Part shown: positions 9,969 to 60,847 of the stretch, one piece after another
How positions within the stretch are numbered: the first letter of the stretch is position 1
Layout: the number at the start of each line of letters is the position of its first letter
NCBI GenBank assembly: GCA_946500895.1
Contig: CAMMXG010000001.1
Location: 705-64,704 of the forward strand
DNA: 64,000 nucleotides
Origin: an uncultured Mycoplasma sp.
GTDB taxonomy: Bacteria; Bacillota_I; Bacilli_A; RF39; UBA660
Direction: 5' to 3'
Notes under the pieces: model-generated
What the model was told of the DNA's origin: nothing
Seen by the model: only the letters and a program-made list of their open reading frames with translations
The model's database searches: none
Made by a program: the position numbers and the translations under genes

Positions 9969-11951
9969 TTATATATTTCTATTTTTAATATATTCAACAA
10001 TTGCTTTAACAACCCGTTCATTACCAATTTCACAATTAATACATAGATCATAATTTTCTTTAGCACCCCAAGTTTGATTTGAAATAAGTGCATAATACAT
10101 TGATCTAGATTTCATTGACTTAACAATATTTTTTTCAGCTTCTTGCTTAGAATCTTTATAGTTATGGCGAATATTATTAATTTTATAATCCATTCCTGCA
10201 TATAAGAAAATCTTAATTAATCTTGGATTGTCTTTCAAAATATAATCCGCAGCTCGCCCCACAATAACAGCATCTGTAGTCTTAGCAATTTCTTTAATAA
10301 TGGTAGATTGATGAATAATAGCGTCTTTATTTGCATCTAAAGACAAGAAATTATCATATAAATCTTGCTCACTTAAATTTCGGGTTAACTTATGGTCTAT
10401 GGCAAACTTCATAATTTCTTCTTTATCAAAGAAAGAAACATTTAAAGCTTTAGCTACTTCTTCAGCAATTCTCTTACCATTTGTTCCGTGTTCCCTAGAA
10501 ATACTAATAATGAAATGATAGTCCCCTTCACTCTTTTCATCAGTTGTTTCTAATCCCTTAATTTTACGATTATAAGAATCTTTCAAAATGAATAAAGAAA
10601 TAATTGCAGTAATAACTTCCGCAATTGGGAATGTCCACCAAACAAGACTTGTTACATTACTTGATTTTGTAAATAAATAAGCAATTGGAAAGACAAATAT
10701 TACTAAACGCAACAAAGAAATAATAAGAGGTCTTAAAGCATATCGAATAGATTGTAATACTCCTTGAATAGCAACCGAAACACCCATAAAGATATAACCA
10801 ATACTAGCAATTCTAAGAGCTGTTGTACATACGTCAATAATTTCGGTAGTAGATTCGCCAGCAAGACCAAATAAACTGGATAATGGTCTAGCAAATATTT
10901 CAAAAGCAATAGTAATAATGAAAGTTACAATAATGGTATCAATAATTCCATATTTAATACAATCATCAATTCTCTCTTTATCTTTCATACCATAATTGAA
11001 CGATAAAATAGAAATAATAGTATTCGATAATCCAAAAGCAGAGAATAAGGCAATTTGTTGAACTTTATAATAAATACCAAATGATCCAACTAACACTGTT
11101 GTATTTGTATTAGCAAGTCCTAAAATAGCGTTCATACCAACCATCATTACTGCAAGTAATCCTTGCATGAAAGCAGCAGACATACCAATCGAATAAATTC
11201 CTTTAATTAAACTGAAATCAGGTTTAATATATTTTAAGTTTCCATTAATCTCGTGATTATACTTATAATGGAAAAACATTGCCATCAAAAGTGAAACGAT
11301 TTGACCAATAATGGTTGCCCATGCAGCTCCAGCAACACCCATGCCCATTGGGAAAATAAAAACATAGTCTAAAACAATATTGACTAAAGCACCTGTAATT
11401 TGGGCAATCGTTGAAAGCATCGTTCTACCTGTAGCTTGCAAAAATCTTTCATATACAGTAAAACCTATAGCTCCAATTGAAAAACAAGTACAGATTTGCA
11501 AGTATGTTGTTCCCATTTCTATTACTTCCACATTTACCTGTGCAAATAAAGAAATAAACCATCTTGAACCAAACAAACCAAAAATTAAAAAGATAATATA
11601 AATACAAATACTTAAGAAAATACCATTACCAGCAATTTTATTAACTTTTTCCTGATTATTTTCACCCAAGCTTTTGGATAATAATGAATTTAATCCTACC
11701 CCTGTTCCTACACCTATCGCAATAATTAAAATTTGAATTGGAAATGCTAAAGTAAGTGCTTGATTAGCAATTGCTCCAATCTCTCCCATATTCGTAACAA
11801 AAATACTATCTACCACATTATATAAGGCTTGCAAAACCATGGATATAATCATTGGTAACCCCATCTTCCAAAAAAGTTTCTTCATTGGAAAAGTAGCCAT
11901 TTTGTTCTTTTCATTTTTTTCCATATAAATTCTCCTCTCCTTTAAACGCAA
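9969..11951 (-). CDS. MATE-family efflux transporter fused to C-terminal cytidylate-kinase-like (PF13189-type) domain
   Basis: About 450 aa of 12-TM MATE-like sequence, then a ~200-aa soluble domain starting 'HFIISISREHGTNGKRIAEEVAKALNVSFFDKE' (P-loop-like CMP-kinase-like family). Confidence 0.6.
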   Translation of the reverse strand: MRLKERRIYMEKNEKNKMATFPMKKLFWKMGLPMIISMVLQALYNVVDSIFVTNMGEIGAIANQALTLAFPIQILIIAIGVGTGVGLNSLLSKSLGENNQEKVNKIAGNGIFLSICIYIIFLIFGLFGSRWFISLFAQVNVEVIEMGTTYLQICTCFSIGAIGFTVYERFLQATGRTMLSTIAQITGALVNIVLDYVFIFPMGMGVAGAAWATIIGQIVSLLMAMFFHYKYNHEINGNLKYIKPDFSLIKGIYSIGMSAAFMQGLLAVMMVGMNAILGLANTNTTVLVGSFGIYYKVQQIALFSAFGLSNTIISILSFNYGMKDKERIDDCIKYGIIDTIIVTFIITIAFEIFARPLSSLFGLAGESTTEIIDVCTTALRIASIGYIFMGVSVAIQGVLQSIRYALRPLIISLLRLVIFVFPIAYLFTKSSNVTSLVWWTFPIAEVITAIISLFILKDSYNRKIKGLETTDEKSEGDYHFIISISREHGTNGKRIAEEVAKALNVSFFDKEEIMKFAIDHKLTRNLSEQDLYDNFLSLDANKDAIIHQSTIIKEIAKTTDAVIVGRAADYILKDNPRLIKIFLYAGMDYKINNIRHNYKDSKQEAEKNIVKSMKSRSMYYALISNQTWGAKENYDLCINCEIGNERVVKAIVEYIKNRNI

Positions 11952-26456: not shown

Positions 26457-27362
26457 GAGCATTGGGGCTAATGCTTTCACTTATATAATAACTATTTCTT
26501 ACCTCCTTACTCTTAGGGGTTTTGGTTGTAGAAAGTAGGTGATTATATGGAGTTGCGTTTAATAGTAATATTACCGCTTAAATAAATTTCCACCAGCGTA
26601 GCTGGTGGTTTTTCTGTTTCGCCTAAAAGGCTTTACTACTGGCTTCTACTGAAGTAGCCTGTTTCGACTGCCATTCGCATCTTTTACTTGCTACCCTTTG
26701 AAAGGGTCAAAATCTTCTATTGTCATCTGTTGACTTAATCTATCTTCTTTTAATTGATTTGCTATATATTCTTTTATCTTTTTCGTATTTTTTCCTACTG
26801 TATCTACATAATATCCTCTGCACCAAAATTCTCTATTTCGATATTGATACCGCATATTCGCCCATTTACTATATATCATGATACTACTCTTGCCTTTCAA
26901 AAATCCCATGAAATCTGAAACACTATATTTCGGTGGTATCTCTATCAACATATGGATATGGTCTGGACATACTTCTGCCTCTATTATTGTTACTCCTTTC
27001 CATTCACATAATTGTCTCAAAATCTGACCGATTTCTAATCTCTTACTTTCATAAAATACCTTTCTTCTATATTTTGGCGCGAATACAACGTGGTATTTGC
27101 AATTCCACGTTGTATGTGCTAAACTTTTAATATCATTTATTTTGATTTCTTTCATTATAAATGTCCTCCTTCTAATATTTTTGTTGCTTCTTGGCAGTCG
27201 CAACAAATATTATATTAGAAGGAGTTTTACTTTTCAACTCATCGCTAAAGCTATACTGAACCCCCAGACTATCTGGGGGTTTTCTCTAACAAAAAACATT
27301 AGTCATAACGATACGACTAATGTCCCACAAAAATAGGCATTAGATCGCACCCCAATGCTCTA
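26457..27362 (-). mobile_element. IS200/IS605-family insertion sequence (TnpA only) with hairpin ends
   Basis: Single HUH transposase gene. Both ends carry GAGCATTGGGG...AATGC hairpins in inverted orientation (26458-26476 and 27338-27361). Internal hairpins CCACCAGC-GTA-GCTGGTGG (26591-26609) and CCCCCAGA-CTAT-CTGGGGG (27254-27272). Boundaries approximate. Confidence 0.45.
26691..27155 (-). CDS. tnpA: IS200/IS605-family transposase TnpA (HUH Y1)
   Basis: HUH motif 'CPDHIHMLIEI', catalytic Tyr region 'ANQLKED'. Likely start at MKEIKIND (GGAGG 8 nt upstream), giving ~154 aa. Confidence 0.8.
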   Translation of the reverse strand: MKEIKINDIKSLAHTTWNCKYHVVFAPKYRRKVFYESKRLEIGQILRQLCEWKGVTIIEAEVCPDHIHMLIEIPPKYSVSDFMGFLKGKSSIMIYSKWANMRYQYRNREFWCRGYYVDTVGKNTKKIKEYIANQLKEDRLSQQMTIEDFDPFKG

Positions 27363-50725: not shown

Positions 50726-51154
50726 ACTCTTCCCTCCACTTAATACATCTACGATTTACAACTTGATTATAAATTCATATATAGAAAAAAACAAGTGCTT
50801 TTTTAGACAAATTTTTGCCATTTTTTTAAGATGCCCATAAACACTTAGAAGAATGAAAAAAATTTTTTTGTTCGCTTTACGACAATTGACAATTATTTAA
50901 CAAAATGAACATTCGTGATTTCAAAAAAATCTTAAAAGGTGTTTTTTGAAAAAAGTAGGAACTCATTTTTTGGCTTAAATTAAGCAAATAGTAAAAAATA
51001 TTTTTCTAAAAAAACGAAGTTTGACTATTTTTTTAAAATACAAAAGGTGTTTTTTTAAAAGAAATATTATTTAGAAATTAAACCACAAAATACCTAGAAA
51101 TTAGTAAAAGACTTGCAAGGAATTACATTTTTTAATATAATTGATATATCAAAT

Positions 51155-51197
51155 GTCCTCGTAGCTCAGTAGGATAGAGCAATTGCCTCCTAAGCAA
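51155..51197 (+). tRNA. 5' half of a disrupted host tRNA-Arg(CCT) (acceptor, D-arm, anticodon stem-loop up to the att core)
   Basis: GTCCTCG-TA-GCTC-AGTAGGATA-GAGC-A-ATTGC-CTCCTAA-GCAA, then diverges. Pairs perfectly with the 3' half at 60814-60847. Confidence 0.55.
51186..51197 (+). repeat. attL core (CCTCCTAAGCAA), identical to 60802-60813
   Basis: 12-bp exact direct repeat at both junctions. Corresponds to the tRNA anticodon loop plus 3' stem. Confidence 0.5.
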
Positions 51198-51247
51198 AGG
51201 GTGACGTTTGAAAAATGATAAAAACCCCAATAAAATCGGGAAAATTT

Positions 51248-51324
51248 GTTCTCGTAACTCAGTTGGATAGAGTATCCCTCTCCTAAAGGGAAAGTCGGCA
51301 GTTCGAGCCTGCCCGAGAACACCA
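51248..51324 (+). tRNA. tRNA-Arg (anticodon CCT), complete, element-encoded
   Basis: Manual fold: acceptor GTTCTCG/CGAGAAC, D-stem ACTC/GAGT, anticodon stem TCCCT/AGGGA with loop CTCCTAA, T-stem GGCAG/CTGCC with loop TTCGAGC, discriminator A, encoded CCA. Confidence 0.85.
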
Positions 51325-51436
51325 TTATTGTATATAGAAGTCTTGTAAATAAAGCATTTACAAGATTTTTTTGTATTTTTAAAAGTGTTACAAAGTATCA
51401 CAATTTAACATCATATGGCACCTAATTCGGCACTTT

Positions 51437-51478
51437 TTTCGGCACCAATTTCGGCACTCGGTAAAACACTTCAAATTG
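51437..51478 (+). repeat. four direct GGCAC(C) repeats at ~12-bp spacing (putative integrase arm-type sites, left end)
   Basis: ATGGCACC / TTCGGCAC / TTCGGCACC / TTCGGCAC. Three more copies at the right end (60634-60671) in the same orientation. Confidence 0.4.
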
Positions 51479-51565
51479 TCTATAAAAATCAAGTAAAATA
51501 TGAGCAAATACAGAGCGAGGAATTTCGTGTTGGAACAAACCAAAATTAAAGATAAGGAGTAAAAA

Positions 51566-51796
51566 ATGAGAGAAGAATTTAAAAACATGAGGTTTAATAT
51601 CACAGAGGATATGTATAATACTATGCTTGAAATGTTAGTCATACATCAAATGCTAGAAGATTTTAACCCAACTAAAAAAGAAAAGAGAATGCTTAATAAA
51701 AAGTTGAAAAACTTGCAATATCATTTTACGTATGAGCTACAACTTCATAACCCCATGCAAATACACATTTATAATAAATTTATGAAAGACGAATAG
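51566..51796 (+). CDS. small hypothetical protein (76 aa)
   Basis: ORF with AAGGAG RBS 8 nt upstream. No recognisable domain. Confidence 0.3.
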   Translation: MREEFKNMRFNITEDMYNTMLEMLVIHQMLEDFNPTKKEKRMLNKKLKNLQYHFTYELQLHNPMQIHIYNKFMKDE

Positions 51797-51851
51797 ATAG
51801 GCATAACACCCTATCTTTTTATCTACTTTAATACTATATATATGAGGACAA

Positions 51852-52379
51852 TTATTTTTTCCAAACATTAAATATCGAATCTTCAAACTTTTCATATAAT
51901 GTTCGGGGTATTTCTGTACCTTTTGCAAATATAAAAGGGTTTACCAAAATGTATTGTTCCTCACTTTCTACTTGTATAATTTCTTTTTCTATTAAGCCAT
52001 TAATGGCTCTATCAAAAGTTTTTGAGTTCATATTTAATATTTTACGTAAATCTCTTTTATTTAAAAAGCCTGCAAACATATTGCATTGTATTTTGATTAA
52101 ATAACCACTATACTCGCCAAAACCAATATGACTTAGCATAGCAAATATAATTTGTGCCTCGCTACCTGTAAAACGCATTATTGATAAAATATCGCTTGTT
52201 TTACAAAATAACTTAGTGAAGGTTATATTTTGGTTTAGCTTTATATATTGTTTATCATGTTCTACTTGCGAGGCACGTCTAATACGCACCTCATCACCTG
52301 CATTTATTTCTTTACAAACATTGTAGTCTTTATCGACAATATAACCCTCGTGAGGCATTTGTTTTGGTAAATTTAACAT
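51852..52379 (-). CDS. RepL-like replication initiator / winged-helix DNA-binding protein
   Basis: 175 aa. C-terminal pattern 'IGFGEYSGYLI...FLNKRDLRKILNMNSKTFDRAINGLIEKEIIQV...YILVNPFIFAKG' parallels Firmicute plasmid RepL ('...IGGKKLKIVNYIL...IAKATGTSLQTVITTLKILEEGNIIKR...MLNPELLMRG'). Confidence 0.45.
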   Translation of the reverse strand: MLNLPKQMPHEGYIVDKDYNVCKEINAGDEVRIRRASQVEHDKQYIKLNQNITFTKLFCKTSDILSIMRFTGSEAQIIFAMLSHIGFGEYSGYLIKIQCNMFAGFLNKRDLRKILNMNSKTFDRAINGLIEKEIIQVESEEQYILVNPFIFAKGTEIPRTLYEKFEDSIFNVWKK

Positions 52380-52531
52380 TTAAAATCATCTCCTTTTTGT
52401 TAAAAATGTCTCACATCTGTAAATAATTAGGACAAAAATGGCATATATTAAATAGCCATTTTTTCTTTTATATAAAGGGAAAGTTCACTAAAAAATGATT
52501 TTATCTATCTAATATCTTATTTCAACATTCG

Positions 52532-52879
52532 CTAACACCTACCGCTAGAGCAGTAATCTCTACTTGCATTATACATACAAGTAGGACAATTTCTCTCGAA
52601 GCCTTGGTATTCAAGAGCCTTTGTGAATTGGCTACCAAACACACCTGAACCAAAACGTATCTTTGCTATCTCTTCTCTTATGACTTCTCTAACTATCTTT
52701 TCTACAAGTTGTTCGAGTTCACTTTTCTCGAACGGCTTGTTTCTTTTGGTATCTTTTTCTTTCATAGCCTTAACATTGACTTCGTTTATCATTTCAGCAA
52801 TGTCGTATTCAAGCACTTCGCCAAAGCCTTTCCTAATACTCTCTAAGTCAAACAAGTCTTTAAACTCGTATTGTCTCAT
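52532..52879 (-). CDS. hypothetical protein with C-terminal Cys cluster (CPTCMYNASRDYCSSGRC)
   Basis: Start placed at MRQYEF (GGAGG 8 nt upstream), not the longer track ORF. No domain assignment. Confidence 0.35.
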   Translation of the reverse strand: MRQYEFKDLFDLESIRKGFGEVLEYDIAEMINEVNVKAMKEKDTKRNKPFEKSELEQLVEKIVREVIREEIAKIRFGSGVFGSQFTKALEYQGFERNCPTCMYNASRDYCSSGRC

Positions 52880-52945
52880 GAATATCGCCTCCATTGATTT
52901 TTTTTTACAATTACATTTTAAACGTTTTTGGTACGTTCTGTTATC

Positions 52946-53110
52946 TCTAAACAATTCTTTTTTTCAAAAATTCTTTGAAATCTTCGTCTTTAACTAAGTA
53001 CCTACCGCTCAAACGTATAGCAGGAAGATGTCTATCACGAATTAGCTTTTGGATAGTCTTAACGTTAATTCCCGTCATGCAACTTATTTCCTTAGTGGAA
53101 TAAAATTTCA
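52946..53110 (-). CDS. excisionase/AlpA-like HTH_17 small DNA-binding protein (54 aa)
   Basis: Not in the ORF track. MKFYSTKEISCMTGINVKTIQKLIRDRHLPAIRLSGRYLVKDEDFKEFLKKRIV. CCTAGGAGGTG RBS. Similar to the xis-like protein at 59198. Confidence 0.45.
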
Positions 53111-53383
53111 TGTACTCACACCTCCTAGGACTTATATTCCTTTGCCCTTACTTGTTAGGAGTGAAAAGGCGGCTGCACTCCACTAAAAGAACCGCAAAAA
53201 AACAAGCCTGTTAAATAAGCCTGTTTTAGCCTTTTAGAGAAACAAATATCCGAGAGCATATAATCAATGTTATGGGAAGAAAAAAAGCTCCCACGCATGA
53301 CTACTCAAAGAATAATCAGTACAATGGGGGCATAGTTTTGCGGTTTTTCTCTTGACTTTCTTAAAAAAGGGGCGGTTGTTCCT

Positions 53384-54097
53384 TTACTCACTTTGCGTTT
53401 TCAATTTGCACATAGTAAATAGATATATTACAAGTATATAGATACTATCTCCAAAACCACCAAAAGTAATAGTTGATATTACACATAATATTACGATTAA
53501 AACGTGTAAAATTATGCTTTTATAACCAAATTTGTTTAGCATATTAATTATCACGCATGATATAATACCTACAATAAAAGCAATACCCTGATAAAGCCCA
53601 TGGGAAATCAAAGAAAAACTTTCTAAAACACTTGGCCATCTAATTATAATGGCAAGTATTAATAGCATAATTATAGCTATATCATATAGATTTATTTTTT
53701 TACCTTTTTTATTAATTATAATCAAAGTGGTATAAATTAAAACAATTGCATTATATAAGCTAAAGTTTTTAAGTAGAACTACCAGTAGTAATATCGTTAA
53801 AATTGCTGCGAAAATAGGAATGATTTTATATTCTTCTTTTAACTTTATTGCCAAATACCAAAATACATATATTAAACAAAGTGGAATTAATCCAACTCCC
53901 TCCATAACAAGTAGCAAAAGCAGTAGAATGAATAACCCTATTAAAATATAATCGAATATTCCTATATTATACTTTTGTTTTATTTCTTTAAAACTAGTAC
54001 TCTCATTTGTTGTTTGAAGCTCGATACCACAATGAGGACATTCTGTTGCAGTATCACTTACTTTTTTACCACATTCTTTACATTTAATTAATGCCAT
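53384..54097 (-). CDS. zinc-ribbon (CxxC...CxxC) N-terminus fused to polytopic membrane domain; paralog 3 of 3
   Basis: Starts MALIKCKECG...CPHCG, then ~6 TM helices. The track uses an upstream GTG start. Confidence 0.5.
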   Translation of the reverse strand: MALIKCKECGKKVSDTATECPHCGIELQTTNESTSFKEIKQKYNIGIFDYILIGLFILLLLLLVMEGVGLIPLCLIYVFWYLAIKLKEEYKIIPIFAAILTILLLVVLLKNFSLYNAIVLIYTTLIIINKKGKKINLYDIAIIMLLILAIIIRWPSVLESFSLISHGLYQGIAFIVGIISCVIINMLNKFGYKSIILHVLIVILCVISTITFGGFGDSIYILVIYLFTMCKLKTQSE

Positions 54098-54102
54098 ATC
54101 TA

Positions 54103-54627
54103 TCACTCTTTCTCATACATATCTCCATCACTTTCTCTTAGGCTATTTCCAACTATTGTAAATCTTTTCAAAACTTCGCCATCCGAGTAAACCCTTAAAG
54201 TATTTCCGCTTCTTTCATAAGTACAATCAAAAGTTATCGCACCTGTATAATAAGAACAAGTCTTATCTTTATACAATGTTATACTACTTCTGAAAGTATA
54301 TCCATATCTCGTACTTTCATGAACGTAAGTTCCCTCAAGTGAAGATGTGCTAAATATAAAGATAATCGCTACCACAAGTATTATTGCAACAATACCAATA
54401 ATTATCTTTTTCTTTTTATCAAGATGGTTAATAATATTTTTTCCCTTTATTTTTTCTTTCAAAAGATTATAACCACATTCAGGACAAACTTTGCTATCAG
54501 CTTTGACTTTTTCTCCACATTCAGGGCATTCTATTTTTAATTCTTCGTTTGGTGCTTTGCATTTTGGACAAGCCTTTGCTTTATCGCTCATTTCTGCTCC
54601 ACATTCTTTACATTTAATTAATGCCAT
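54103..54627 (-). CDS. double zinc-ribbon + single-TM + extracytoplasmic domain protein; paralog 2 of 3
   Basis: Starts MALIKCKECG...CPKC, second ribbon CPECG...CPECG. One TM, C-terminal ~80-aa domain. AGGAGA RBS before the MALIKC start. Confidence 0.5.
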   Translation of the reverse strand: MALIKCKECGAEMSDKAKACPKCKAPNEELKIECPECGEKVKADSKVCPECGYNLLKEKIKGKNIINHLDKKKKIIIGIVAIILVVAIIFIFSTSSLEGTYVHESTRYGYTFRSSITLYKDKTCSYYTGAITFDCTYERSGNTLRVYSDGEVLKRFTIVGNSLRESDGDMYEKE

Positions 54628-54643
54628 TTTTATTCTCCTAACC

Positions 54644-55240
54644 TTACTCCACAACTAAATTTTGATTTAACCAAGCTATTTGTTCTTCTGAAAAAGTATA
54701 GAATGTATCTTTAACACCATCTCTATTATCTTCAAGACAATGCTGATTACCATAAAAATTATCAAGCATGTCAAGATAATCTCTACCACTGTATGTCATT
54801 CCATCTTGGTTTCCATCATATACTGTAGGATTTACTAATTCACCAGTATCTGCATTTGTTAACAACCATTGAGTGGTATATTTATTGTTGTAATCATAAT
54901 ACCAAAAGTCAACAGAATACCTATCATCACATTTGCTTACATTAGTAATATATACTTTATTATTACGATGAAGGTTTGGGGCATCTATATCCCAATCTAC
55001 TTCCATTAACATATTTAAAACTTCTTGCGTTTCTTCATCTATCTCATTTTCGCTATCCTTAGAATTAGGGCTAAATGCAAATAAACATGTAAATCCTATA
55101 GCAATTATTCCAATAATTACCATTAGTATTTTCCCAACATTTTCATTTTTATTTTTTTCTATTTTTTTGCCACAATTGGGGCAGTTTTTTTCTTGATTGC
55201 TTATATCTGCACCACATTCACTACATTTAATTAATGCCAT
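54644..55240 (-). CDS. zinc-ribbon + single-TM + Cys-containing extracytoplasmic domain protein; paralog 1 of 3
   Basis: Starts MALIKCSECG...CPNCG. One TM, then a ~140-aa outside domain rich in D/N/Y/W. Confidence 0.5.
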   Translation of the reverse strand: MALIKCSECGADISNQEKNCPNCGKKIEKNKNENVGKILMVIIGIIAIGFTCLFAFSPNSKDSENEIDEETQEVLNMLMEVDWDIDAPNLHRNNKVYITNVSKCDDRYSVDFWYYDYNNKYTTQWLLTNADTGELVNPTVYDGNQDGMTYSGRDYLDMLDNFYGNQHCLEDNRDGVKDTFYTFSEEQIAWLNQNLVVE

Positions 55241-55246
55241 TTGAAA

Positions 55247-55477
55247 TTACACTCCTTTATCATATTTAAAAATTATCTTTTTTTGCAAATGTATTTCAGG
55301 AATTACCTCGTAAGTAAAACCTTTATTTAATAATTCTTGTCTCAAGACAGATTTTTTACTATCGATATTTTTAGGTATATCAAAACCAGTTAGCTTTTTA
55401 AACTCTTCATTGCTTAACTCAAAATCTTGTTTCTTGTCAAGTTTCTCATAAAGTGGTTCATATCTTTTCTTAGCCAT
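55247..55477 (-). CDS. small hypothetical protein (76 aa), first gene of the zinc-ribbon operon
   Basis: ORF 6 nt upstream of paralog 1. Divergent from the Xre gene. Confidence 0.3.
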   Translation of the reverse strand: MAKKRYEPLYEKLDKKQDFELSNEEFKKLTGFDIPKNIDSKKSVLRQELLNKGFTYEVIPEIHLQKKIIFKYDKGV

Positions 55478-55583
55478 TTTCTCAAACTCCTTTCTTGCTT
55501 AATATTATAACATAAAACCCCACCTATTGGTAGGGGTATTTGTTTATAAAAATATAAGATAATTATTAAAAGGCAGGTGGACT

Positions 55584-55847
55584 ATGGAACATTCTAAAGA
55601 CGATAATAATTACGTTTATTATTGGGTGGGAAAAAACATCAGAAAGCAAAGGAAATTAAAAGGTTGGACGCAAAGACAACTTGCCGAGAAGTGTAGTTTT
55701 AGTGAAAACTTTATCGGCGACTTAGAGAATGAAACATTTAAGACTTGCTCTCTAAACACTTTGTATCACATTTCCAAAGTGCTTGGTGTTCCTTTAAAAG
55801 TATTCTTTGAAGAATTAGACGAGAGCGATATTAAGCCAAAGAAATAA
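55584..55847 (+). CDS. Xre/cI-family HTH regulator of the element
   Basis: 87 aa. 'LKGWTQRQLAEKCSFSENFIGDLENE' HTH_XRE. Divergent arrangement with a 106-bp control region. Confidence 0.65.
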   Translation: MEHSKDDNNYVYYWVGKNIRKQRKLKGWTQRQLAEKCSFSENFIGDLENETFKTCSLNTLYHISKVLGVPLKVFFEELDESDIKPKK

Positions 55848-55924
55848 GATATGCAAAACACATATCTTTTTTATATCCTAATTGTATGATTTTATATTGG
55901 AGAATTATTAAATAAAAAAGAGGA

Positions 55925-56698
55925 CTATTCTTCCTCTTGCAAATGATTTTCAAAATAATCTTCTTCACTTACGATTTTAAGTTTAGCACCTGTATATTCG
56001 CCAAAGTTAGTTTCGTCTAATTTCTTAAAGTCAATGGAGTTAATATTCTCATTGATAAAATTATAAAGCAAATTAGCAAAGTTTTGCTTAGCTTCCATAT
56101 TATCATTAAAAATAAAGCCAAATAGTTCTTGGTATTCACTAGGTAAAATATTTTTATACAAAGGATATGTTATATTCATTTCCAAACTATCTTTTAAGAA
56201 TTTATCTACTAACTTATCTATTTTTTTGGTAGGTATTTTGGTTTTATTATCAAGTGCATTTCTATCATAAGTGATTATATTTTCTTGTACTAATTTTTCT
56301 AAAATAGGTATGATGTATTCTTCTTTGTATTGATTAATTTTTTCGGGATAAGTTTTAATTCTTCGCATTACTTCTACAAAATCACGAGCAATTCTTTTTT
56401 TAGAGCTTGGTGTTGCAGTACCTAAATAATCATAATCTTTTCCAAATATTAGTTCTCGCTCATTTAAGGAAAGGTTAATGTTTTCAAATTGTCTGATGTA
56501 ATTAAGAATATCTATTTTAAAATCGTATTCCTCGGTTTCGTCCTCAAGTCCGAGCTTTAGTATTTCGGGCATTACATAATCACTTACAAATTTTTGTATT
56601 TTTTCTAATTCTTTTCTTTCTGATGTATTATCTTTTCTTTTGAAAATATCCTCTTTTCTATTTTCTTTTAACATTTTCATAGTATTAATTGATTTCAT
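55925..56698 (-). CDS. hypothetical protein (257 aa), cargo gene
   Basis: No recognisable motif. Start is 2 nt after the stop of the 387-aa gene. Confidence 0.35.
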   Translation of the reverse strand: MKSINTMKMLKENRKEDIFKRKDNTSERKELEKIQKFVSDYVMPEILKLGLEDETEEYDFKIDILNYIRQFENINLSLNERELIFGKDYDYLGTATPSSKKRIARDFVEVMRRIKTYPEKINQYKEEYIIPILEKLVQENIITYDRNALDNKTKIPTKKIDKLVDKFLKDSLEMNITYPLYKNILPSEYQELFGFIFNDNMEAKQNFANLLYNFINENINSIDFKKLDETNFGEYTGAKLKIVSEEDYFENHLQEEE

Positions 56699-56699
56699 T

Positions 56700-57863
56700 T
56701 TAACTCACTCTTTCAAATAATTTTTGGTTTCTTTCAATAATCTTTTGTATTTTGATTAAAGCCTCTTGAACTTGGCTTTTGTCGTTCATTGTTGGAACGT
56801 TATCATATATTAAGGCATATACCTCTTTTAAATCTCGGACTATCTTTAAAAGCAAATCGGATCGTATTGTAAAAGTTAAATCATTCGTTGTAATTCTATC
56901 CATATTTATATAGAAAAAATATAAGTCAGAGTTAGACACATACTCATCAGGTTTAAAAAGGTATATCACATCAAGAATATGCTTATTCGTGCAAATATTA
57001 CTATATACATATTTTGTCAATGCTTTCATAGTTTTTGCAATTTCACTAGTATAAGCTTTACTTAATTGTTGGAAGTTTTCACTATTTTCCATATTGATAT
57101 TAAGTGTTTGTAAATAGGCATTAAAGTAATTGTCAGAGAAAGACATTTCATTTAAGCCAAACTCTTTTTTGCTATCGTCAAAAAATAATTTTACAATACC
57201 ATTATTTCCACAGGCAATTAGTTTATAAATTAAGCAAACGTCATTCATTTCTTGTTCTTGCAATTCCACTCCATATATATCATAAAACTCTTGCTTGTAC
57301 TTGATTATTTCTTCTTGTTGGTTAGGATATAGGTAATCAAGTTTACTTATATAGATTTTATAATCACTATCTTTGTTTTTCTTATAACTTATATTTTCTT
57401 TTACAACACTATCAAACTCAACACTTTCCAAGTCGCTCATTTCTTCTTCTACTTCTTTTTTTACGAAGTCAAGCTCATTGATATTAGATAGATAATCATA
57501 CCACTCAATAAACTTATTAAAAAGGTGTCGTGTATGGCTATCAATTAGATTTTTAATTGTTCTCGTGCTATATTTATACTTTCCTGTGTCTACATCATCA
57601 CTTTCAAGACTACCATATAAGGCAATAGTTAGAGTATCCAATATCTCTATTTTTTTATCATAGAGGTTTTTGTTACTATCGGCAAAGAGAATGTTATTGA
57701 TTTTAATTAGTGTTTTAAACACATCAAGCATAATGTCATATTGCTCTTTGTATTCCTTTCTAAAATCAGTTATTTCAAGAGTGTGTTCTAACGCATTAAT
57801 ATACTTGCTATTTCTAAAAATATTGTCCGATAAGGTATTATGTCTATATCCCATTAAAATCAC
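56700..57863 (-). CDS. hypothetical protein (387 aa), cargo gene
   Basis: No recognisable motif, acidic. Forms a tight pair with the 257-aa gene. Confidence 0.35.
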   Translation of the reverse strand: MILMGYRHNTLSDNIFRNSKYINALEHTLEITDFRKEYKEQYDIMLDVFKTLIKINNILFADSNKNLYDKKIEILDTLTIALYGSLESDDVDTGKYKYSTRTIKNLIDSHTRHLFNKFIEWYDYLSNINELDFVKKEVEEEMSDLESVEFDSVVKENISYKKNKDSDYKIYISKLDYLYPNQQEEIIKYKQEFYDIYGVELQEQEMNDVCLIYKLIACGNNGIVKLFFDDSKKEFGLNEMSFSDNYFNAYLQTLNINMENSENFQQLSKAYTSEIAKTMKALTKYVYSNICTNKHILDVIYLFKPDEYVSNSDLYFFYINMDRITTNDLTFTIRSDLLLKIVRDLKEVYALIYDNVPTMNDKSQVQEALIKIQKIIERNQKLFERVS

Positions 57864-57920
57864 TCCTACAAGCCAAATTATAGCATAAAAAAAGGCTATC
57901 TCAAACAGGATAGCAACGTT

Positions 57921-58265
57921 TTATTGTAATTCTTTATCAATAAAGGCTTTAATACTTTTATCAGAGCAGTCCTCTACGTTTTGTTTGTCTAAGCTATCAA
58001 ACTTTAAGCTAAGTTCTTCGGCATAGCTTGAAGCCTTTTCCTTATCCATATTCTTTTCGCTAATTAAATATTTTTCGATAAAGTCAAAAAGATATTCTTC
58101 CCACATCATTTGCCTGTCTTTATTAGAATAATCATTCGTTAAATAAAGATACATAAGATAGTCGCCTTTATCAGAAGAATAGTTTTGTAAAAAGCCTTTG
58201 TATTCTTCTCGCTCTTTCTCTAACTTTTTAAGCTCGTTTGTCAGTTCTTGCATTTTCATATACAT
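57921..58265 (-). CDS. hypothetical charged/coiled-coil protein (114 aa)
   Basis: ORF only. Confidence 0.3.
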   Translation of the reverse strand: MYMKMQELTNELKKLEKEREEYKGFLQNYSSDKGDYLMYLYLTNDYSNKDRQMMWEEYLFDFIEKYLISEKNMDKEKASSYAEELSLKFDSLDKQNVEDCSDKSIKAFIDKELQ

Positions 58266-58380
58266 ACCTCTTTTCTACATCAATATTATAGCATTAAAAA
58301 AGCTATCTTGCTATAAGATAACTTTAATTTTGTTTTTTAATAGCTTATTTTAGCTTGTTTATAGTTTAAAATAGTTTAAA

Positions 58381-58650
58381 TTAGTCTAATTCACTTAGAA
58401 TCTCGTTATACTTCATAAAATCATTGTATAGCTTTTGGATAGCAGTATATAAACTCGCTATTCTACTATCAATACTATTCTTAGAAGTATTATTCTTTTG
58501 TTGTACGCTCAAGAATTTTTGAAATTTCTTAATTGTTGCTTTAGATAACTCTTTTTCAGTATATCTATTAAGCATAACTTCAACCATAACCTCTCTAATA
58601 TCGTTTAAATCTAAAATATTTTTTGTTTTACTATCTAACATTCTAATCAC
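58381..58650 (-). CDS. hypothetical protein (89 aa)
   Basis: ORF only. First gene of the leftward cargo operon. Confidence 0.3.
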   Translation of the reverse strand: MIRMLDSKTKNILDLNDIREVMVEVMLNRYTEKELSKATIKKFQKFLSVQQKNNTSKNSIDSRIASLYTAIQKLYNDFMKYNEILSELD

Positions 58651-58950
58651 TTTCCTTTCTTTGTGGGGTTGCCACGTTTTGTTAGATTTTACAAACGTTT
58701 AAGTCGACTTGTTCGTTTGTGATTTCATTCTAGCAAAGAAAAGCGAGAAAAAAAGATACATAAAAAAAAGATAAGTGTACCATTCTTGAAAACTGCAAAC
58801 CCTTTATTTACAGGACTTTCAGAGCTTTTTGATACCGATTTTTCGAGTTAAAAGTTTAAAAATAGAATAAAATTTTTTTAACATTTATTAGCAGGAGTAC
58901 ACTCATTTTTTATCCTTATATATATTTAATAGCTGTCGCAGAAAAAAACT

Positions 58951-58996
58951 ATCATAAACTATCACAAACTATTACAAAGTATCACAAAGTGTTAAA
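58951..58996 (+). repeat. five tandem ~10-bp iteron-like direct repeats (AAACTATCAT/AAACTATCAC/AAACTATTAC/AAAGTATCAC/AAAGTGTTAA)
   Basis: Read directly. A two-unit copy (AAAGTGTTAC/AAAGTATCAC) occurs at the other end of the element (51402-51421). Confidence 0.4.
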
Positions 58997-59197
58997 TTTT
59001 TTTTAAATCTTTTTTTTAAATCTCATTCGATAAATCGGAACAGGCATTTTTAAGAAATCCCCATAAATACTAGGTTTATGACTTGAAAAACTCTTTCAAA
59101 ATTAGTGCAGAAAAAAATTTTTTTCGTTCGAGAACGTGCTTTTTTTATCTTGTATTATGTAATCACTCAAGCAAGAGAGAAAGGACGAGTGAGAACA

Positions 59198-59395
59198 ATG
59201 ACAAAAAAGATATGTGATATTACAGAGGTAGCAAGTTATTTACAGGTTTCTGTTTCCGAGGTTAGAAAGTTAGTGAGATCAAAAAGAATACCACACTTTA
59301 GAATTGGAAATAGACTAAAGTTTGACTTAATCAAAATTAATTCTTGGCTCGATGATTTAGAGGCACAAGAAAGCAAAAGAGTATTTATTTTCTAA
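59198..59395 (+). CDS. xis: excisionase-like HTH_17 DNA-binding protein
   Basis: MTKKICDITEVASYLQVSVSEVRKLVRSKRIPHFRIGNRLKFD. AAAGGA RBS. Immediately upstream of int. The track's longer N-terminus is unlikely. Confidence 0.55.
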   Translation: MTKKICDITEVASYLQVSVSEVRKLVRSKRIPHFRIGNRLKFDLIKINSWLDDLEAQESKRVFIF

Positions 59396-59499
59396 ATAAA
59401 AAAATAGCGGTTTTACTAGGAATTATGGGCAAAATATGATATAATTATATTAGATAATTTGAAGTTTTGCTCATATAAGAAAGGAGTTAAAAAAAGATT

Positions 59500-60627
59500 A
59501 TGAGCATAAAAAGATTATCAAATAATAAATATAAAATAACAATAGAACTTGGATATGATATTTTAGGTAATAGAAAGAGAAAAACAGAAACATTTAATGG
59601 TACTAAAGCGGAGGCAACTATAAGAGAGGCAGAACTTATGAAAAAGTTTTACCACATCGGTCAGTCAAGTAATATAAACGACTTAAATTTCGAGGAATAC
59701 TCTCAAATTTTTGTAGCAAAATATTGTGATAAAATTGGTCTAGTTACTAAAGATGGCTACGTAAGGTCATTAAAAATGATTATTCCAATAATAGGTAAAA
59801 TTAAACTCAATAAAATTACCCCTCTTGTTTTAGACAATATGTATCAAAAATTAAAAATTGGCGAAAAAGGACAAGAGCTTGGCTACCACTCAATGTATGC
59901 TTATTACAAACTAATAAATGTTATGTTTAATCAAGCTATCAAATGGGAGCTTATTGATAAAAACCCAAACTTGAAAGCAAATAAACCTAAAAAAGAAAAA
60001 ACAGAGCGTAGATATTATGACTTAGAGCAAGTTCACAAATTATTATCTTGCCTATCTAATGAAAGAATAAAGTATAGAACTCTGATAACTCTAGCTTTAG
60101 ATAGTGGCATGAGAAGAAGTGAAATTTGTGCTTTACGTTGGAGCGATGTTGATTTTGATACCAATACGATTAAAATCAATAAATCTTTAAAGGTTGTTAA
60201 GGGTGTTGTTGACGAGGAAACTACAAAAACAGAAAGTTCAAAAAGAGAAATTATTGTTAGTAATGCTACCATTAATCTTTTGAAAAAGTATAAAGAATGG
60301 CAAGACAATTATATTAAAGAAATGGGTAAAAAGTGGATAGGTACTGATAGAGTATTTACTTCTAAAGAGGGCAACTATATGTACCCAAGCACTTGCGACC
60401 ATACTTTAAGAAAAATAATCAAAAAATATAACCTAGACCCTATTTGCTTTCACGAACTAAGACATACATCTGCAAGCATCTTAATTCATAAAGGTATAAA
60501 CCCAAAAGCAGTAAGTCAAAGATTAGGTCATGCCGACACAAGTATTACAATGGAAATCTATTCACATACCTTTGATGTTACCAAAAAAGAAAGTGCTAAA
60601 GCATTCGACGAAGTATTAAGTTATTAA
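59500..60627 (+). CDS. int: tyrosine-type site-specific recombinase/integrase
   Basis: 375 aa. N-terminal SAM-like/arm-binding region. Catalytic 'LDSGMRRSEICALRW' (R), 'HELRHTSAS' (HxxR), 'LGHADTSITMEIYSH' (Y). Transcribed toward attR. Confidence 0.85.
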   Translation: MSIKRLSNNKYKITIELGYDILGNRKRKTETFNGTKAEATIREAELMKKFYHIGQSSNINDLNFEEYSQIFVAKYCDKIGLVTKDGYVRSLKMIIPIIGKIKLNKITPLVLDNMYQKLKIGEKGQELGYHSMYAYYKLINVMFNQAIKWELIDKNPNLKANKPKKEKTERRYYDLEQVHKLLSCLSNERIKYRTLITLALDSGMRRSEICALRWSDVDFDTNTIKINKSLKVVKGVVDEETTKTESSKREIIVSNATINLLKKYKEWQDNYIKEMGKKWIGTDRVFTSKEGNYMYPSTCDHTLRKIIKKYNLDPICFHELRHTSASILIHKGINPKAVSQRLGHADTSITMEIYSHTFDVTKKESAKAFDEVLSY

Positions 60628-60633
60628 AAAAAT

Positions 60634-60671
60634 GGCACCAAAAAAAAGAAATGGCACCAATTTTCGGCACC
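60634..60671 (+). repeat. three GGCACC direct repeats between int and attR (putative arm-type sites, right end)
   Basis: AATGGCACC...AATGGCACC...TTCGGCACC. Same motif and orientation as 51437-51478. Confidence 0.4.
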
Positions 60672-60801
60672 AACCTAAAAAATCAAGTTCTAAAAGTTAG
60701 TAATAAAGAATAATAAAATGCTAAAAAAAACCTTAAATAAAGGGAAAACAAGCCTTTCTATATATTAAAAAAATGGTGTTCTTGTTGGAATAGAACACAC
60801 C

Positions 60802-60813
60802 CCTCCTAAGCAA
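60802..60813 (+). repeat. attR core (CCTCCTAAGCAA)
   Basis: Exact copy of 51186-51197. Confidence 0.5.
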
Positions 60814-60847
60814 TAGGTCGTTGGTTCGATTCCAATCGGGGACGCCA
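60802..60847 (+). tRNA. 3' half of the disrupted host tRNA-Arg(CCT) (anticodon loop to CCA)
   Basis: CTCCTAA-GCAAT-AGGTC-GTTGG-TTCGATT-CCAAT-CGGGGAC-G-CCA. Acceptor 3' strand pairs with GTCCTCG at 51155. No 5' half is present locally. Confidence 0.55.

Follow-up and report, generated by a model that had tools for sequence, protein, structure and literature searches.

A split host tRNA gene and an intact tRNA beside it

The 64-kb stretch of DNA analysed here (64,000 nucleotides; hereafter the window) contains a single tRNA gene recognized by ARAGORN, a tRNA-Arg(CCT) at positions 51248-51324 of the plus strand, and this gene lies just inside one end of an integrase-bearing element of 9,616 bp (51186-60801) that sits between the two halves of another tRNA-Arg(CCT) gene, that of the host. 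The initial annotation had described the intact gene as a complete, foldable tRNA-Arg(CCT) located 50 nt inside the left junction of the element, and both ARAGORN and Rfam bear this description out. The possibility raised there that the gene is a pseudogene can be set aside by score, since the Rfam tRNA model gives it 62.2 bits, well over the gathering score of 29. The features at the left and right attachment sites (attL and attR), the arms of the attachment site and the integrase gene are as follows.

51155-51197, plus strand: positions 1-43 of the host tRNA-Arg(CCT), its severed 5' part, reaching from the acceptor stem through the 3' side of the anticodon stem (exact unique match)
51186-51197, plus strand: attL common core CCTCCTAAGCAA, the anticodon loop plus 5 nt, the longest identical block common to both junctions
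51198-51247, no strand assigned: element spacer of 50 nt, with a hairpin and T-run and a promoter-like site
51248-51324, plus strand: intact, element-borne tRNA-Arg(CCT), called by ARAGORN and Rfam and missing at the empty site described below
51416-51458, plus strand: P' arm with four GGCAC-type direct repeats, 231-267 nt past the attL core
59500-60627, plus strand: tyrosine integrase, 375 aa, with an N-terminal SAM-like domain (Pfam Phage_integrase, 1.5e-32; PHROG 1, 3.8e-73)
60633-60671, plus strand: P arm with three GGCAC-type repeats, which precede the attR core by 131-168 nt
60802-60813, plus strand: attR common core CCTCCTAAGCAA, 12 bp, the same block as at attL
60802-60847, plus strand: displaced 3' part of the host tRNA-Arg(CCT), starting with the attR core and ending with CCA

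The host 5' part starts 93 nt upstream of the start of the element tRNA and breaks off past the anticodon loop, and the distance from the core to the element tRNA is 50 nt. Joining 51155-51197 to 60802-60847 in silico yields an ARAGORN-valid 77-nt tRNA-Arg(CCT), and the 12-bp core shared by the junctions is found at the anticodon loop, where the crossover had been placed in the initial annotation. The element tRNA and the host tRNA differ in their D-loops (AGTTGGATA and AGTAGGATA, respectively) and in their T-arms, as had also been pointed out, and are alike at 50 of 77 positions. Neither junction in the window rebuilds a tRNA: ARAGORN calls no tRNA at attR, and in a permissive Rfam search the attR hybrid and the attL fragment reached 16.3 and 20.1 bits, respectively (the latter as a truncated match), both below 29, so the claim that the insertion does not regenerate the host tRNA stands. 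The attR hybrid (60774-60847) does fold, as a long hairpin of -31.2 kcal/mol (z = -4.1 relative to shuffles) in which 18 nt of the element arm pair with the 3' strand of the host T-stem, the 3' strand of the acceptor stem and CCA.

When NrdG, a host protein encoded nearby, was used for a look-up, contigs of the same species were obtained both with and without the element. The contig without it (L037) carries nrdD, one intact tRNA-Arg(CCT) and a gene for a 621-aa protein, the same gene that forms the right flank of the element in the window. The 5' and 3' parts of the host gene in the window are identical to the corresponding parts of this intact gene, and a 220-nt probe across the in-silico excision junction has an exact match in the contig, which holds no second tRNA at this empty site and lacks the element tRNA. 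Two other contigs (L034 and L042) hold window positions 51140-51330, i.e., the attL junction together with the element tRNA, exactly, and in a third (L035) the spacing between nrdD and the tRNA is that of an occupied site. Within the species, the insertion is polymorphic, and it is precise.

With only 50 nt between it and the host fragment, and with the same orientation, the intact tRNA might be taken for a second, tandem host tRNA-Arg(CCT), in which case the boundary of the element would lie to its right and no compensation would be involved. Because the empty site in the same species has a single tRNA and lacks the one at 51248, the latter is element DNA and not a tandem host copy. In addition, the P' arm repeats lie beyond the tRNA, and the tRNA moves with the element among species whose own tRNAs differ (see below). 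We regard a tandem host copy as vanishingly unlikely.

Related elements and the tRNA genes they disrupt

Relatives of the integrase (46-82% identical) were fetched from species-representative genomes and metagenomes, and a script joined candidate junctions and re-ran ARAGORN on the products. This procedure gave 15 distinct loci including the window, and two more (L097 and L014) were recognized by eye. All 17 of these replacement-type loci have a host 5' half, a short core, a spacer and an intact tRNA, and in every one the anticodon of the element tRNA is that of the disrupted tRNA, with four target identities represented.

Arg-CCT, 12 loci: the window, L002, L003, L004, L006, L008 (fetched again as L050), L045, L046, L051, L063, L072 and L077
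Ser-GCT, 2 loci: L013 and L069
Lys-CTT, 2 loci: L078 (script) and L097 (by eye)
Met-CAT, 1 locus: L014, 1822-1985, minus strand, by eye, in a metagenome-assembled genome (MAG) labelled Tenericutes, with an integrase 52% identical

The proposal that the element brings a complete tRNA with the same anticodon, first made for the window, is thus upheld by comparison across its relatives. The core is 9-14 bp long in the replacement-type loci in which it was measured (12 bp in the window), and the spacer is about 30-77 nt in the 14 loci measured or read directly and 42-77 nt in 12 of the 15 loci found by the script. The integrase and the host 3' half are found at the far end in all loci except L014, where the integrase gene neighbours the element tRNA and the contig stops short of the far end. 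This Met locus is mirrored: the 5' half of the host tRNA-Met(CAT) is followed after about 40 nt by an intact element tRNA-Met(CAT), which sits directly downstream of the severed half, between the core and the integrase-side arm repeats. Across loci, the host halves covary in their anticodon stems (ATTGC/GCAAT, ATCGC/GCGAT or ATCGC/GCGGT) and in their acceptor stems (GTCCTCG/CGGGGAC or GTCCTTG/CAAGGAC), indicating that the separated pieces are halves of one gene. An integrase 98% identical to that of the window was also seen beside a different host tRNA-Arg(CCT) 3' half (L044, 2566-2620), with a GGGAA anticodon-stem strand and a different flank, so essentially the same element is present in a second host background.

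The attR junctions of these loci bear on whether the element tRNA is needed at all. In principle, the left arm of the element joined to the host 3' half could give a usable, if unusual, tRNA-Arg and render the element tRNA redundant, as the core-adjacent arm is able to base-pair with the 3' strand of the host acceptor stem, the hybrid of the window is more stable than shuffles (z = -4.1, as above), and ARAGORN calls a tRNA-like gene at attR in L077 and L097. These are the only two such calls, with none in six loci tested directly and none in the other replacement-type loci, and the fold of the window hybrid is a long hairpin without a cloverleaf that scores 16.3 bits with Rfam, below 29. Moreover, the likeness of the attP arm to tRNA halves does not exceed that of shuffles, and the ATGGTG (or GGTG) next to the core is shared by the Lys elements L078 and L097 and is therefore no relic of an acceptor stem. 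A functional tRNA at attR is, in our view, very unlikely indeed.

We next consider the element tRNAs themselves. All 21 cloverleaf pairs are preserved (100%) in six distinct element tRNA-Arg variants from related elements, and eight stem pairs show compensatory double changes, a number reached in 0 of 500 shuffles. Comparison shows that the element tRNA is conserved and selected as part of the element, and that it is linked to which tRNA is the target. One and the same element tRNA (76-77 of 77 positions) occurs in six hosts whose own tRNA-Arg(CCT) genes are alike at only 53-73 of 77 positions. Within a locus, element and host tRNAs share 50-63 of 77 positions, with the exception of L008 (71). 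By these comparisons, the element tRNA evidently travels with the element across host species. When hypothetical chimeras of the host 5' half and the element 3' half were constructed, 2-4 stem mispairs resulted in 10 of 11 loci; judging from these mispairs, carriage of a whole tRNA would leave the element indifferent to the rest of the host tRNA, with the anticodon loop as its invariant target.

It is also conceivable that the tRNA is carried to supply codons or to escape anticodon nucleases, and that its match to the disrupted anticodon is a coincidence. Such roles are a common explanation for tRNAs of phages and other elements, an anti-defence role is mentioned in PMC10865867, and the element tRNAs of 9 Arg-CCT loci out of 12 have anticodon stems unlike those of the hosts, of the TCCCT/AGGGA type (ACCCT/AGGGT in L051). 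The anticodon match in 17 of 17 loci, spanning four anticodons, argues against coincidence, as does the lack of a tRNA in the two relatives that rebuild their target (described below). In the host genes of the window, 8.6% of Arg codons are AGG (2.5 per 1000 codons), against 10% in element genes (3.9 per 1000), and this similar usage disfavours codon supply for element genes. We consider an unrelated role very unlikely as the explanation, and an extra anti-nuclease benefit possible. The divergent anticodon stem of the element tRNA was separately considered as self-immunity against the element's own integrase and rejected, given that the full core is present in the element tRNAs of L008/L072, L063, L077, L013 and L078.

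Two relatives without an extra tRNA solve the same problem differently. In L047 (integrase 78% identical), a 46-bp core, present as a direct repeat, rebuilds a tRNA-Arg(TCT) at attL (1117-1193, with the displaced repeat at 10056-10101); its P' arm repeats are about 70-80 nt nearer to the core than those of the replacement type. In L015 (integrase 70% identical; complete MAG OZ007038.1), the element is inserted in reverse in a tRNA-Leu(GAG) and supplies a new 5' half behind promoter-like sequence, the host 5' half being displaced beside the integrase gene (junction features at 981-1066 and about 11271-11330). The plus-strand core of L015, CCTCCTCAAAG, resembles the Arg-CCT core CCTCCTAAG, a likeness that may explain the flip. 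The integrase family uses all three solutions, i.e., replacement, classical and reversed.

Proposed mode of integration and expression

The GGCAC-type direct repeats of the two arms are rare in the window (28% G+C), where 9 of 12 plus-strand copies of CGGCAC or GGCACC fall in the two arm clusters, and the same motif is found beside the cores in all relatives. These clusters are presumed to be arm-type integrase-binding sites. Because the P' arm repeats lie beyond the tRNA, the element tRNA is placed inside the reconstructed attP. Two readings of the sequence around the core were tried and discarded: that attP is a decayed pseudo-tRNA, with its left arm as 5' half and its spacer as 3' half (alignment to the host halves not above shuffles, p 0.03-0.97), and that the ATGGTG or GGTG motif is a tRNA relic, the motif being present in the Lys-specific elements L078 and L097 as well.

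Candidate expression signals surround the element tRNA on both sides.

51113-51141, plus strand: promoter-like site TTGCAA-17-TATAAT of the host tRNA, ending 13 nt before the host 5' fragment (a consensus match only)
51208-51236, plus strand: promoter-like site TTGAAA-17-TAAAAT in the spacer
51241-51225, minus strand: spacer hairpin and T-run, reading as a terminator on the minus strand only
51340-51372, plus strand: predicted intrinsic-terminator-like hairpin and T-run right after the element tRNA

The sequence of the first of these sites also precedes the intact tRNA of the empty-site contig. A hairpin is found at the spacer position in related spacers as well, as read by eye, and each of the 15 replacement-type loci examined has a hairpin and T-run behind its element tRNA. 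The severed host 5' half is followed closely downstream by the element tRNA, in the same orientation, in every one of the 17 loci. With this arrangement, transcription started at the host tRNA promoter would pass the 43-nt fragment and then the 50-nt spacer before reaching the element tRNA, the spacer promoter might add to its transcription, and RNase P would then free the element tRNA.

We consider it very probable that 51248-51324 is the working tRNA-Arg(CCT) of a 9,616-bp integrative element that splits and replaces the host tRNA, the strategy known as tRNA-dependent lysogeny. In the mechanism that we propose, the tyrosine integrase would carry out recombination between the host tRNA-Arg(CCT) gene, at its anticodon loop, and a short core in attP, CCTCCTAAG(CAA), and the host gene would be left as two dead pieces because only 12 bp are shared and the element has no matching 3' half. 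The element tRNA, with the same anticodon, would take over the decoding of AGG. This tRNA would be part of attP itself, located between the core and the arm-type sites of P' and followed by its own terminator, and supplying a whole tRNA instead of a 3' half would remove the need to match the sequence of the host tRNA, such that the invariant anticodon loop could serve as a landing site in many species. Integrase-mediated excision is expected to restore the host gene exactly, given that the empty site of L037 is identical in sequence to the product of in-silico excision.

The initial annotation had gone further and suggested that the host would become dependent on the element if this were its only tRNA-Arg(CCT). 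This does not hold for integrase-mediated loss, as the host tRNA is intact in the empty-site contig; it is the viability or fitness of the integrated state, not the host itself, that would depend on the element tRNA. Put as addiction, the same idea holds that the only tRNA-Arg(CCT) of the host has been destroyed and the element can no longer be lost. The host gene is indeed dead as long as the element is integrated, and one locus (L011, see below) suggests that an element tRNA can become a landing site beside a relative that possibly lacks an integrase, which could fix the replacement. Against addiction, site-specific excision regenerates the host gene exactly, as seen at the empty site, and occupied and empty alleles coexist in the species. 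We think it most improbable that the host is bound to the element in this manner.

Several points weigh against the replacement mechanism as proposed here. The excised circular form with its attP junction was not found in the assemblies examined, and all contigs with the exact integrase that reach the core show attR, so that attP is a reconstruction. Expression, charging and complementation by the element tRNA are predictions from sequence. Furthermore, tRNA-Arg(UCU) may read AGG by wobble, and for this reason the host gene may be non-essential and the compensation beneficial but not required. Finally, a consensus-like spacer promoter is present in the window and in 0 of 14 relatives, and the count of promoter sites is not above that of shuffles, in a scan that misses most host promoters and decides nothing on the spacer promoter; promoter capture by the element tRNA is an argument from geometry.

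Gene content, known systems and evolution

The relatives share a common gene set and are 7-11 kb in size. The remaining genes of the element in the window are listed here.

51566-58650, both strands: element body with 13 open reading frames, 11 of them on the minus strand, the gene set common to related elements
52947-53111: small helix-turn-helix (HTH) protein of the HTH_17 type, in the element body
53384-55240, minus strand: three tandem paralogues with an N-terminal zinc ribbon, 240, 183 and 198 aa
55584-55847: small HTH regulator of the XRE type, in the element body
56700-57863, minus strand: 387-aa signature protein of the element family
59105-59395, plus strand: excisionase-like HTH_17 protein, upstream of the integrase (Pfam HTH_17, E = 6e-11)

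The integrase residues R205, K231, H318, R321, H344 and Y354 are invariant in the family alignment and are read as the putative catalytic set. The HTH_17 gene beside the integrase gene is conserved in all relatives, and we infer that its product is the excisionase. The three zinc-ribbon paralogues appear to be membrane proteins; their first 70 nt or so are kept at the DNA level (repeat family D1), and their position is occupied by equivalent variable genes in related elements. They may be cargo, and showed no match to known defence systems.

Conserved proteins of 387, 257, 175, 140, 114, 89 and 76 aa in the element body have no assigned function. The largest of these has more than 370 homologue clusters in metagenomes, and the 120 clusters listed come almost all from metagenome assemblies only, with no Pfam domain or name in any of them. 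The protein itself has no match in Pfam and no sequence match in a PDB profile search, and its AlphaFold model is of low confidence (pLDDT 57) and unusable.

Across Pfam, PHROGs, NCBIfam, PADLOC and the PDB profile search, matches of the element proteins are restricted to HTH, zinc-ribbon and integrase families. Searches of the 9.6-kb element with Pfam, PHROGs, NCBIfam and PADLOC found no capsid, tail, terminase or other virion genes, no packaging or lysis genes, and no relaxase or recognisable replication protein; no relative was found among IMG/VR viral contigs with the integrase as query. With no virion, packaging or lysis genes and no IMG/VR relative, the carrier seems to be a different kind of element than a temperate phage.

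The disrupt-and-replace strategy is less unusual than the initial annotation had it, as it was shown experimentally in actinobacteriophages in 2024. Guerrero-Bustamante and Hatfull (mBio 2024, PMC10865867) used three features to define tRNA-dependent lysogeny: the attB of a tyrosine integrase is within a tRNA gene, the core measures about 10 bp (8-17 bp) and does not restore the tRNA, and the lost function is complemented by a phage-encoded tRNA of matching isotype. The tRNA requirement was proven experimentally for Fionnbharth (K4), and the examples include, besides this phage, cluster L, Gaia and the Gordonia phages BrutonGaster, OneUp and Mollymur, with further cases that use Lys-TTT, Ile2-CAT or Leu-CAA; in sister phages the cores are 43-49 bp long and the tRNA is rebuilt (PMC10865867). 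A passage of the same paper names the Lactobacillus johnsonii prophage Lj965 as a possible case outside actinobacteriophages; the GenBank record of this prophage shows no tRNA at either end.

The window shows every sequence-level feature of tRNA-dependent lysogeny. The two systems are alike in having a tyrosine integrase with arm-type sites, an attB in a tRNA gene, a short core and a tRNA with the same anticodon; in both, related integrases with long cores rebuild the tRNA and carry none, and several tRNA identities occur within one integrase family. They differ in that the hosts here are low-GC uncultured gut or rumen Bacilli known from MAGs, not Actinobacteria, that the best phage integrase match is only 34% identical to that of the window, and that the carrier is an element of 7-11 kb without recognisable virion genes, to which the word "lysogeny" may not apply. 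The tRNA of Fionnbharth lies elsewhere in the genome, overlaps gene 37 and has its own demonstrated promoter, whereas here the tRNA appears to lie inside attP, about 30-77 nt from the core. Moreover, tRNA-dependent lysogeny was proven by experiment in mycobacteriophages, in contrast with the present system, which is known from sequence alone. None of the papers found to use the term extended it to satellites or small integrative elements. What was already known is thus the disrupt-and-replace strategy; new are the gut Bacilli as hosts, the non-phage carrier, and the position of the tRNA inside attP directly downstream of the severed 5' half.

Classical tRNA-targeting integrative elements and prophages, reportedly treated by Williams in 2002, repair their target through a segment of the tRNA gene carried on attP, so that an intact, chimeric tRNA forms at one junction. 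Classical islands restore the split tRNA gene (Islander, PMC4383910). The window element resembles them in its tyrosine integrase, its crossover in the anticodon loop and the displaced 3' fragment at its far end, and one member of its family (L047, with its 46-bp direct repeat) is of this type; it differs in supplying a separate complete gene, with no tRNA at the junction and only 12 bp shared. Other elements recombine with the 5' portion of their target tRNA gene and supply a 5' half and a promoter, as described by Zhao and Williams (2002) according to a passage in PMC6563490; such recombination is rare (PMC6563490). It is the relative L015, and not the window element, that can be likened to these. 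Phage satellites and other small helper-dependent elements, including those like phage-inducible chromosomal islands (general concept in PMC11389934), resemble the elements described here in size (7-11 kb), in having an int-xis module, variable cargo and small HTH proteins of a repressor-like kind, and in lacking structural genes. In contrast, no primase-replicase, small terminase or capsid-remodelling protein was recognised in the present element.

In a neighbour-joining tree of 17 integrases, drawn without support values, the classical L047 and the reversed L015 are nested in one clade; the rest of the clade, down to its deepest branches (Lys, Met and Ser), is of the replacement type or was left unclassified. 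In one further locus (L011, 4245-5033), the core and the arm on the integrase side run straight into the 3' half of an L077-like tRNA belonging to another element, whose P' arm and genes come next; no second integrase is present within 10 kb. An element seems to have inserted here into the tRNA of a relative that was already in place and has possibly decayed, which suggests that element tRNAs containing the core can act as attB.

As a tentative scenario, to which we would assign a minority share of the probability, the elements may be abundant small hitchhikers in gut Bacilli, their attP having evolved into a stand-alone tRNA cassette of core, spacer, whole tRNA and terminator that inserts into the transcription unit of the host tRNA, frees the element from the tRNA sequence of each host and thereby widens its host range. 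Replacement would then be ancestral in this integrase clade and the classical and reversed solutions derived, for example through removal by the integrase of the stretch from the core to the anticodon loop of the element's own tRNA, and landings in element tRNAs would lead to permanent replacement of the host gene.

The disrupt-and-replace strategy is not confined to actinobacteriophages, and it predominates in a widespread family of small integrative elements found in uncultured gut Bacilli. Programs that detect genomic islands often seek a restored tRNA and a long displaced fragment, so elements with cores of 9-14 bp are probably missed, and these programs would tend to label the element tRNA as a host gene. 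With classical, reversed and replacement solutions, the single integrase clade offers a comparison set for the evolution of attP and of target choice, and the cassette of integrase, attP and tRNA could be a portable integration tool for hosts with differing tRNA sequences.

Elsewhere in the window, an IS200-type insertion sequence is found at 26691-27281 on the minus strand. Its open reading frame (26691-27206) matches Pfam Y1_Tnp (5.8e-40), and the Rfam family STnc490, which we take to be the IS200 5' leader RNA, is found at 27169-27281 (64 bits), overlapping the start of the Y1 transposase gene.

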